A DNA stretch of 55,983 bases from a virus. Made by a program: the position numbers and the translations under genes. Within the stretch, counting starts at the first letter, position 1; every line of letters begins with the position of its first letter. Under the pieces are notes generated by a model, which was not told the DNA's origin, did no database searches, and worked only from the letters and a program-made list of their open reading frames with translations. Location: positions 1 to 55,983 of the IMG/VR virus record IMGVR_UViG_3300016478_000096, one strand, 5' to 3'. Below are positions 23 to 618 of the stretch, one piece after another.

Positions 23-106
23 GGCCTCAATGTCCGCAGGCGTGATGCGCGCGGCCGTCTTGCCCTTGGCTTGAATTTCCTGTTCGATTTGTGCGTCGGT
101 GCTCAT
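1..106 (-). CDS. First 106 nt (N-terminus) of a junction-spanning gene for an N4 gp49 / Sf6 gp66-family protein. It continues at 55961 down to 55597; 156 aa in total.
   Basis: ATG at 106-104 overlaps the stop of the upstream gene (ATGA). It translates as MSTDAQIEQEIQAKGKTAARITPADIEAN and stays in frame with the 55597-55983 segment after removing the 22-nt overlap (106+365=471 nt). Confidence 0.85.
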   Translation of the reverse strand, partial: MSTDAQIEQEIQAKGKTAARITPADIEANIASEHY

Positions 107-618
107 TCCACGATCCTCCAGTCCTCGGCCAGCATGTCGGTCTGCGATGCGAGCCAGCCCATCAGGATTGCATCGTCAGCGGTTTTCATGGTGATGCACG
201 GCAGCACGCGAGCGGCGCCGCCTTGCTGCACAGCGAAGTCGCTGTTGTGCTTTGACCAAAACTTGTCCTGGTCGACGTAGCGGGCGTGGACCGAGTCGCC
301 GGAAAGCGACAGCCACATGCCTTTGCCATTCCAACCAGCGCGGGCGACCTTGTGGCCAGCCTTCAACGCCTCGATGGCCATGCCAAACGTCAGGCCATCG
401 GTCGGGCGGTATGCGCGGTTGAACACTTCTGCAGGCGACCAGGACACATAACCGGCGTACAGGTCCGTGTTGCCTTTGCCGCCGTCCAAGTACTCGACCA
501 AGTAGCCTTCATCCGCGCCGTTTTCGTCGGCGGGAAGCTGCCAGCCACGGAAGTCGTTGTACTCCTGGCGGGTCATGGGCTTAGCGTTGATGAGCTTCAC
601 TCCAATGTGTTGTTTCAT
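103..618 (-). CDS. Two-module protein: an N-terminal small domain of unknown function plus a C-terminal DUF2829 (Thoeris anti-defence Tad2-like) domain.
   Basis: The C-terminal half reads [28 protein letters not shown]...[33 protein letters not shown], matching the DUF2829 signature as I remember it. SD GAGGGG lies 7 nt upstream of the ATG at 618. Confidence 0.7.
   Translation of the reverse strand: [171 protein letters not shown]

Follow-up and report, generated by a model that had tools for sequence, protein, structure and literature searches.

We analysed a stretch of viral DNA of 55,983 nucleotides (IMG/VR record IMGVR_UViG_3300016478_000096, positions 1 to 55,983; hereafter the window) that carries, on its minus strand, a gene for a 171-residue protein composed of a small N-terminal module (the N-module) and a C-terminal Tad2-like (DUF2829) domain. 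From homology, fold, conservation of pocket residues, the insertion of the locus and its domain associations, we consider it probable that this gene encodes an anti-signalling sponge of the phage N4 gp49 type, belonging to a Tad2 plus Acb4 accessory cassette that sits in a head-gene operon. The locus is a further example of a well-described counter-defence strategy, in which a Tad2 sponge is coupled to an Acb4 sponge. It contributes a clear-cut example, established by comparison with Caulobacter phage RW, of a cassette of this kind having entered a head operon. The main lead is the N-module, where the fusion logic known from Sequestin points to an unannotated domain. The gene and its parts are the following.

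103..618, minus strand: two-module gene (N-module plus Tad2-like domain) of the N4 gp49 / PHROG 872 type, 171 amino acids (open reading frame, phrog_872, homologues)
397..618, minus strand: N-module, residues 1-74, a small alpha/beta domain (AlphaFold 2 model, cross-matches to the gp68 N-domain)
106..390, minus strand: Tad2-like (DUF2829) domain, residues 77-171 (PF11195, PDB sequence matches, Foldseek, pocket motifs)
624..629, minus strand: GAGGGG motif resembling a Shine-Dalgarno sequence, separated from the downstream ATG by 5 nt and overlapping the TGA (630-628) of the preceding GroES-like gene (read from the sequence)

The open reading frame (ORF) is present exactly as the original prediction had placed it, with its ATG at 618-616, its TGA at 105-103 and a spacing of 9 nt to the stop of the GroES-like gene. 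The phrog_872 profile spans the entire protein (E=6.1e-64; residues 1-171 on profile positions 13-172 of 172). At least 7,969 homologues were found in a collection of 5.8 billion proteins, the best 120 of which are all full length (~170 amino acids, 69-97% identity), and the gene is therefore genuine and conserved rather than a chance ORF. An NCBIfam search returned no family for this protein or for its Acb4 neighbour.

The Tad2-like domain and its putative signal pocket

In a Pfam search, the 73-position profile of PF11195 (Tad2-like) aligned with residues 77-170 from its position 2 to its position 73 (E=2e-23; score 83.2 bits, cut-off 25). The solved chains of AcrIIA7/HgmTad2, SptTad2, ModTad2 and SPO1 Tad2, including 8kbi, 8wjd, 9eib and 8sme, were matched by sequence with E=1.6e-18 to 7e-12. 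An AlphaFold 2 (AF2) model reached a mean predicted local distance difference test score (pLDDT) of 80, and its 24 top Foldseek matches in the PDB were all Tad2 structures (E 7e-8 to 4e-5; target template modelling score 0.63-0.82), with only Tad2 structures as significant fold neighbours there. The domain shares the Tad2 fold, built of an N-terminal helix and an antiparallel sheet, and its pocket residues for glyco-cyclic ADP-ribose (gcADPR) with HgmTad2/AcrIIA7 (PDB 8KBI-8KBM), to which it is 49% identical across the domain, SPO1 Tad2 (8SME-G) and ModTad2 (9EIB). In contrast to these three proteins, which are single-domain and 89-104 residues long, the present one carries the additional N-module.

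In HgmTad2, gcADPR is contacted by W21, N22, G23, M76, A78, T82, V84, W87, L88, S90, T92 and D93, and the substitutions W21A/N22A and S90A/T92A/D93A abolish binding (10.1101/2023.11.15.567273). The residues aligned to these contacts are, in the same order, W96, N97, G98, M144, T146, A150, L152, W155, L156, S158, T160 and D161. The motifs W96-N97-G98 and W155-L156-x-S158-x-T160-D161 are kept, and those mutated in HgmTad2 are identical here. Across 37 family members, W96, N97, G98, W155, L156, S158 and D161 are invariant and T160 is either T or S. The DUF2829/Tad2 call of the original prediction was therefore correct at the level of the profile, of the fold (Foldseek on the AF2 model) and of the gcADPR pocket residues (alignment). 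HgmTad2 belongs to a long-insertion subgroup with a further pocket, for cyclic dinucleotides, formed by R31, S47, F70 and N85 (10.1101/2023.11.15.567273). In the alignment this pocket is not kept, the corresponding residues being S106, F120, V138 and M153; it is a subgroup trait and does not define the Tad2 family. Binding of the cyclic dinucleotides cGG or cGAMP by the HgmTad2 route is thus not expected. Given that the gcADPR pocket is kept and the cyclic-dinucleotide pocket is not, the best-supported activity of the domain, as far as its sequence can tell, would be sequestration of an ADP-ribose (ADPR)-type signal made by a TIR (Toll/interleukin-1 receptor) enzyme. From the solved Tad2 proteins we infer that the domain would assemble into a homotetramer, whose inter-protomer pockets would sequester TIR-made ADP-ribose-derived signals (1''-3' or 1''-2' gcADPR or a related isomer), so that the Thoeris effector would be kept off.

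The names under which some relatives were deposited invite another assignment. The best PDB sequence matches bear the titles 'AcrIIA7' or else 'Inhibitor of Type II CRISPR-Cas system', and the records of phages Louie, Huey and phi1_146050 call their homologues 'anti-CRISPR protein', which would make the protein an AcrIIA7-like inhibitor of type II-A Cas9. We regard this as extremely unlikely, since the group that solved the AcrIIA7/HgmTad2 structure reproduced no Cas9 inhibition either in vitro or in vivo and instead showed a sponge for gcADPR and cyclic dinucleotides (10.1101/2023.11.15.567273). The original Tad2 paper came to the same view, of a sponge rather than an anti-CRISPR.

The Acb4 neighbour and the probable sponge cassette

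At 103-106, an ATGA holds both the stop codon (TGA) of the Tad2-like gene and the start codon of the gene that follows, and the translational coupling to a gp49/66-family gene that had been proposed from the sequence is real. This neighbour is split by the ends of the window.

1..106, minus strand: 5' part of the Acb4-family (PF13876) gene, ATG at 106-104 (phrog_322, PF13876)
55597..55983, minus strand: 3' part of the same gene, stop codon at 55599-55597 (local Acb4 hidden Markov model (HMM), E=4e-42)

The window is a circular permutation in which the Acb4 gene crosses the origin. The same 22 nt occur at 1..22 and 55962..55983 (AACATCGCCAGCGAGCACTACT, minus strand), and because of this end repeat we take the window to be circularly closed or terminally redundant, at ~55.96 kb, with the Acb4 gene running across the junction. 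Its full 156-residue product, taken from the source contig, matches PF13876 (Phage_gp49_66) over profile positions 1-82 of 82 with E=1.4e-33 (score 115.6 bits, cut-off 27).

PF13876 corresponds to the Acb4 family, whose founding member, SPO1 Acb4, is a tetramer that soaks up 3'3'-cGAMP and similar signals of CBASS (the cyclic oligonucleotide-based anti-phage signalling system) and contacts its ligand through K36, F48, E49, Y57, N63, T70 and K81. SPO1 Acb4 itself (9E4W) was matched directly, if weakly (E=0.018, 49-residue alignment). Tad2-Acb4 fusions are frequent and are active against both Thoeris and CBASS. Since the gp49/66 family is the anti-CBASS sponge family Acb4, the locus can be described as a two-gene sponge cassette. 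The two coupled genes would together constitute an accessory unit of ~1 kb directed against Thoeris and CBASS, in which the Acb4-family product would soak up CBASS cyclic dinucleotides.

Comparable pairings are found elsewhere. N4 gp49 adjoins a PF13876/Acb4 gene, gp48, immediately upstream, whereas here the Acb4 gene lies downstream; the N4 pair (Acb4, then N-Tad2) occupies a middle-gene 'anti-signalling hotspot' ahead of the virion RNA polymerase (vRNAP) gene, in contrast to the head operon here. The same principle of combined sponge units against Thoeris and CBASS is seen in Acb4-Tad2 of Pasteurella phage Pm86 and in Acb4-Sequestin of Pseudomonas phages Ab09 (gp59) and YH6. Unlike in those fusions, Tad2 and Acb4 are here separate, coupled genes, and Tad2 is joined to a module that belongs to neither Acb4 nor Sequestin. 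A full-length homologue with 63% identity, Kapi1_043 of the P22-like Escherichia phage vB_EcoP_Kapi1, differs in that it belongs to a temperate phage, lies between the lysis cassette and terS, and has no adjacent Acb4 detectable with local HMMs. With the same type of search, Acb4 was found at 24 of 80 IMG/VR N-Tad2 loci, adjacent on either side and in one case ~2 kb away.

One of those 24 loci (L061:6001-7227, plus strand, IMGVR_UViG_3300022303_000062) encodes a single 408-residue N-Tad2-Acb4 ORF, with the N-module at residues 1-73, Tad2 at 75-160, two repeats of ~60 residues and Acb4 at 299-408. The repeat reads AEIPEGF..WS....V.P.TEVEV...........L.W.N......IIAYRVVE and could be another sponge-associated unit. 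At a different locus (L054:10760-11035, plus strand), a second, diverged stand-alone N-module ORF of 91 residues lies ~4 kb downstream, in addition to N-Tad2 and Acb4. In the window, the Acb4 homologue ends in a Cys-rich tail (..GKACDLSGEGTCEACQ, 55597..55650, minus strand) that resembles the C-terminal ..NCEGGGCKI found in N4 gp48 (L006:2603-2974) as well as in the Acb4 homologues of KP8 and CB1. Acb4 domains of the SPO1 type and those in fusions have no such tail, which may serve in metal binding or disulfide formation.

The N-terminal module

The original prediction described the N-module as unrelated to Tad2 and counted the fusion among the potentially novel features. An extra module is indeed present, with residues 1-74 folding confidently as a separate domain, but neither point survives comparison with known proteins. 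The architecture is that of phage N4 gp49 / PHROG 872, and the module is a recurrent partner of sponge domains as well as the N-domain of the published RyR-Tad (RyR, ryanodine receptor) protein gp68. N4 gp49 (YP_950527, 160 residues) has the same N-module plus Tad2 architecture (Pfam E=8e-24, phrog_872 E=1e-66) and is 43% identical to the present protein in the Tad2 domain and ~46% in the N-module. By tblastn, the Tad2 domain occurs in 335 phage records, and for 92 of them, all of cultured phages, one match alone extends over at least 80% of the query with both domains. The carriers among these 92 include P22-like coliphages (Kapi1, IME10), vibriophages, N4-like Klebsiella and Escherichia phages, Pseudomonas phage phiAH14a and Acidovorax phage AP1. 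The architecture, found in at least 92 genomes of cultured phages, is also present in thousands of metagenomic proteins.

Modelled alone, the N-module reached a pLDDT of 94.4 and a predicted template modelling score of 0.81. In the AF2 monomer it consists of strands at residues 2-5 and 9-14, a helix at 17-24, strands at 38-43 and 57-62 and a helix at 63-69, with a short strand at 71-72. It has no Pfam match even at E<=10, and a PDB fold search with the module alone gave nothing below E=1 in an April-2026 copy, which appears to lack the RyR-Tad structure. Its relatives emerge from comparison with phage proteins. BLASTP against gp68 of Pectobacterium phage CB1 (RyR-Tad, PHROG 18865) gave 36% identity over 67 residues (E=3e-6), the query matches phrog_18865 at E=0.0068, and gp68 in turn matches phrog_872 and phrog_9467 at ~3.6e-7. 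A fold search of BFVD found a RyR protein of Yersinia phage TG1 (E=9e-5). The BFVD matches carry the N-module fused to Tad2, to a RyR domain or to unknown domains, and also include stand-alone proteins of 65-92 residues. In gp68 the homologous N-module is fused to a gcADPR-binding sponge domain that is all-alpha, RyR Repeat12-like and dimeric, in contrast to the Tad2 domain here, for which a tetramer is expected from the solved Tad2 proteins. It is also the only member for which a crystal structure of the N-module has been reported, as a strand-swapped dimer with a five-stranded sheet (bioRxiv 10.64898/2026.06.04.730250). The strands of the monomer model agree with such a sheet.

The N-module is common to PHROG 872 (with Tad2 at the C-terminus), PHROG 9467 (with Acb4; for example crAssphage gp41 and Clostridium phage CP51 gp007) and PHROG 18865 (CB1 gp68), and occurs in 136 INPHARED records. 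When a profile was run against 1.84 billion representatives of clusters formed at 50% identity, 2,515 clusters reached E<=1e-3 and 1,255 reached E<=1e-10. Among the best 150 of the 2,515 representatives, sponge families are the only recurrent Pfam partners, with the following counts.

Tad2: 50
Sequestin (PF21825): 40
Acb4: 18
Acb2/Tad1 hairpin: 1

Local HMMs revealed bead-on-a-string orders such as N-Tad2-Sequestin, Acb4-N-Sequestin and Acb4-Sequestin-N-Sequestin. Within the same 150, nine N-module proteins are apparently stand-alone, and 35 have C-terminal extensions of more than 40 residues belonging to no Pfam family (for example P0125, P0134, P0188, P0207 and P0261). Clustering these 35 C-termini gave a heterogeneous set, mostly singletons, with no new recurrent partner. 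A few resemble Tad2 that has degenerated, diverged or undergone a frameshift. Under the fusion rule, the 35 extensions are a pool of candidate new sponge domains. In the Gram-positive siphophage vB_CpeS-CP51, gp006-gp007 (L008:2795-3465) encode a stand-alone 68-residue Tad2 followed by an N-module plus Acb4 protein, the pair being set between the minor head protein gene and the scaffold gene. This permuted arrangement implies that module shuffling spans very distant phages.

Sequestin was discovered by the rule 'fused to Tad2 and Acb4', and Pfam-based fusion screens would be blind to the N-module because no Pfam model exists for it. Its combinatorial association with five unrelated sponge families (Tad2, Sequestin, Acb4, Acb2/Tad1 and RyR-Tad) and the existence of stand-alone ORFs make it a candidate new sponge-class module. 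We tentatively read it as a sponge-class unit that forms dimers and binds some signal different from 3'cADPR. For the family of 2,515 clusters as a whole we propose, just as tentatively, that it is either a new sponge class for immune signals or an obligate co-factor of sponges, for example one that blunts Panoptes-like sponge-sensing defences. In the subfamily comprising N-Tad2, N-Sequestin and N-Acb4, residues K8, R17, Y20, N21, R24, W26, E32, D36 and N50 are at least 90% conserved; these polar and aromatic positions suggest, on conservation, a binding surface.

Some observations weigh against a ligand-binding role for the N-module. The gp68 N-domain alone showed no activity against type I Thoeris (bioRxiv 10.64898/2026.06.04.730250), a negative assay that covers this one member and this one system. 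Those positions that even the most divergent N-modules share (GYxVxY, SWSP, F and Y, the last two being F66 and Y70 here) seem to serve mainly the structure. In addition, R17, Y20, N21 and R24 are kept neither in gp68 nor in crAssphage gp41. The negative gp68 assay and the core-like conserved positions lend themselves to a purely architectural role, in which the module would be a strand-swapped dimeriser that stabilises or cross-links sponge oligomers (conferring avidity, solubility or protease resistance) without a ligand of its own, leaving the protein functionally a plain Tad2. This would agree with the gp68 crystal, in which the domain-swapped N-domain contributes to dimerisation, and with the known partner sponges, all of which are even-numbered homo-oligomers compatible with a dimeric clamp. 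Yet those partners already oligomerise by themselves, and the polar and aromatic positions conserved within the large subfamily suggest a binding surface; we hold the architectural role possible but slightly less likely than the sponge-class one. If the N-module binds a signal, as in the sponge-class reading, a sponge family would be added that is present in N4, in crAssphage and in thousands of uncultured phages, and 'Tad2' proteins of the N4 gp49 type would need a new interpretation. If it is only a dimeriser, this would still explain a widespread architecture, and the module should be kept apart from Tad2 in annotation.

Two described families were compared with the module. Identity with Sequestin (crAss001_48), which of all families is the commonest fusion partner of Tad2 and Acb4, was rejected: PF21825 gave no match at E<=10, with the positive control, the helical C-terminal domain of Ab09 gp59, found at 2.7e-12, and an alpha/beta module differs from the short, all-helical antiparallel dimer of Sequestin. 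Lockin is made of curved, elongated, mostly-beta protomers forming hexamers and is reported to be absent from INPHARED genomes; going by this description only, a compact 74-residue alpha/beta domain present in 136 INPHARED records does not fit. Weak BFVD similarity to DUF1653 proteins (E 0.7-1.5) was not taken as evidence. In the 158-residue 'AcrIIA7' of PDB 9KZR, the Tad2 domain is preceded by ~48 residues, either a tag or a natural extension, which do not align to the N-module and are too few to hold one.

Insertion of the cassette in a head operon

On the minus strand, the genes run in the order large terminase, DUF6973, a PcfJ-like gene (781 residues), portal (848 residues), two small ORFs of 48 and 65 residues, a GroES-like gene (136 residues), the Tad2-like gene, the PF13876 gene, genes for 333, 176 and 197 residues, the major capsid gene (304 residues) and endonuclease VII. 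The features that frame the cassette are the following.

628..1038, minus strand: GroES/Cpn10-like co-chaperonin gene, upstream insertion boundary (PF00166, E=3.4e-9; 63% identity to RW GP090c)
54579..55580, minus strand: 333-residue head-module gene, downstream insertion boundary (homologue of RW GP089c, 36% over 252 residues, E=2.5e-39)
1477..4023, minus strand: portal gene, 848 residues (phrog_1216, E=1.5e-13)
52427..53341, minus strand: major capsid gene, 304 residues (PF25209, PHROG major head matches; 85% identity to RW GP086c)

The sponge gene had been placed between the portal and the scaffold. Its position between portal and capsid, inside the head-gene block, is confirmed, but the scaffold is not, since the 333-residue protein has no PHROG or Pfam match; PHROG and Pfam searches gave no name to the 176- and 197-residue genes either. 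Megablast of window positions 1-8000 against 50,697 phage records found no match, so that the phage is without a close sequenced relative there and relatives were sought by protein. By the portal, the closest cultured relatives are the Caulobacter phages RW, KcrB, RLK and GB2A, with 59% identity to the gene in the portal position. The order in RW is identical (portal, small ORFs, GroES, then genes for 316, 184 and 188 residues, and capsid), with GroES 63% and capsid 85% identical to their counterparts. RW has 73 bp between GroES and the 316-residue gene, against ~1 kb holding N-Tad2 and Acb4 in the window, and six-frame HMM searches of the whole RW genome found no N-module, Tad2 or Acb4. On this comparison, the head-operon position is explained by insertion of a putative ~1-kb cassette between the GroES-like gene and the 333-residue gene.

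Elsewhere the surroundings differ. In MW202545, whose portal is 47% identical, the Acb4 plus N-Tad2 pair lies among nuclease and DNA-metabolism genes, 30 kb from the portal. The nearest large neighbours across the 80 IMG/VR loci are heterogeneous: about a dozen loci have Mu-F, portal or minor-capsid genes upstream and about a dozen have scaffold, capsid or small-terminase genes downstream, the others being next to DNA polymerase, single-stranded DNA-binding protein, ERF, NinG, lysis genes, integrases and, once, Sequestin. The Kapi1 copy sits between lysis genes and terS, the phiAH14a and Clostridium phage CP51 copies have a minor head protein on one side and scaffold or capsid on the other, and the N4 and KP8 copies lie in the 'anti-signalling hotspot' ahead of the vRNAP gene. 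Because the contexts vary in this way, the head operon appears as one recurrent landing site of a mobile accessory cassette, with no sign of a head function. The head-operon placement pointed out in the original prediction thus comes from an insertion that RW lacks, and elsewhere the gene or the pair takes early, nin, lysis-terminase or integrase-proximal positions.

A genuine tie to the virion was nevertheless weighed, in which the protein would be a sponge made strictly late or packaged in the virion, or else would act in morphogenesis, and the N-module would direct it to the capsid. The location between the portal/GroES-like and capsid genes, with no promoter or terminator predicted nearby, fits such a role, as does the recurrence of similar positions in phiAH14a, CP51 and the dozen or so IMG/VR loci. 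We consider it very unlikely all the same. The cassette is absent both from the collinear head operon and from the rest of the RW genome, so that heads can evidently be assembled without it; its homologues occupy the N4 middle-gene hotspot, nin and DNA-metabolism regions, the lysis-terS gap and sites beside integrases; and neither CB1 gp68 nor the CB1 Acb4 gene bears the note 'MS-MS confirmed structural protein' (MS-MS, tandem mass spectrometry) that CB1 virion proteins carry. Furthermore, Kapi1_043, which has been proposed to be a Tad2-like anti-defence protein, is the top-expressed prophage gene in lysogens. This argues for moron-like expression and against the strictly late timing that had been suggested for the gene in the window.

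Under the sponge reading, the cassette would probably be co-transcribed with the abundantly expressed structural genes. A plausible rationale for the site would be high, stoichiometric expression alongside the structural proteins that trigger these systems. Structural proteins are reported to trigger Thoeris; in Pseudomonas phages of the N4-like group, it is the side tail fibres that decide whether type II Thoeris is effective. A simple consensus scan found no sigma-70 promoter in positions 1-7000 and no minus-strand terminator near the gene; the only terminator-like matches in 1-7000 are on the plus strand and are fewer than in shuffled sequence.

Several points count against the sponge reading of the locus as a whole. 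The monomer model of the Tad2 domain is moderate in places (pLDDT 64-78), and its beta2-beta5 insertion (residues ~106-137) is unlike that of characterised Tad2 proteins. The ligands of Tad2 proteins are known to be broad, comprising His-ADPR, N7-cADPR, cCMP/cUMP and cyclic dinucleotides, so that the exact ligand cannot be read from the sequence. Co-transcription of the cassette with the structural genes, although likely, draws only on gene spacing and the simple consensus scan.

Other genes of the operon deserve brief mention. The RW homologue of the GroES-like gene is annotated as co-chaperonin GroES, and this conservation suggests that phages of this clade bring their own chaperonin cofactor for folding the capsid. 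The gene at 4026..6371 (minus strand), between terminase/DUF6973 and portal, encodes a 781-residue protein with a PcfJ-like domain (PF14284, E=4.6e-12). It has no counterpart at the RW position (tblastn, no match), and GC content is lower around it, in the 4-6 kb region (0.56 against ~0.63). Directly downstream of the major capsid gene and inside the structural block, an endonuclease VII / HNH-type gene for 224 residues (51684..52358, minus strand) is probably a homing-type insertion.

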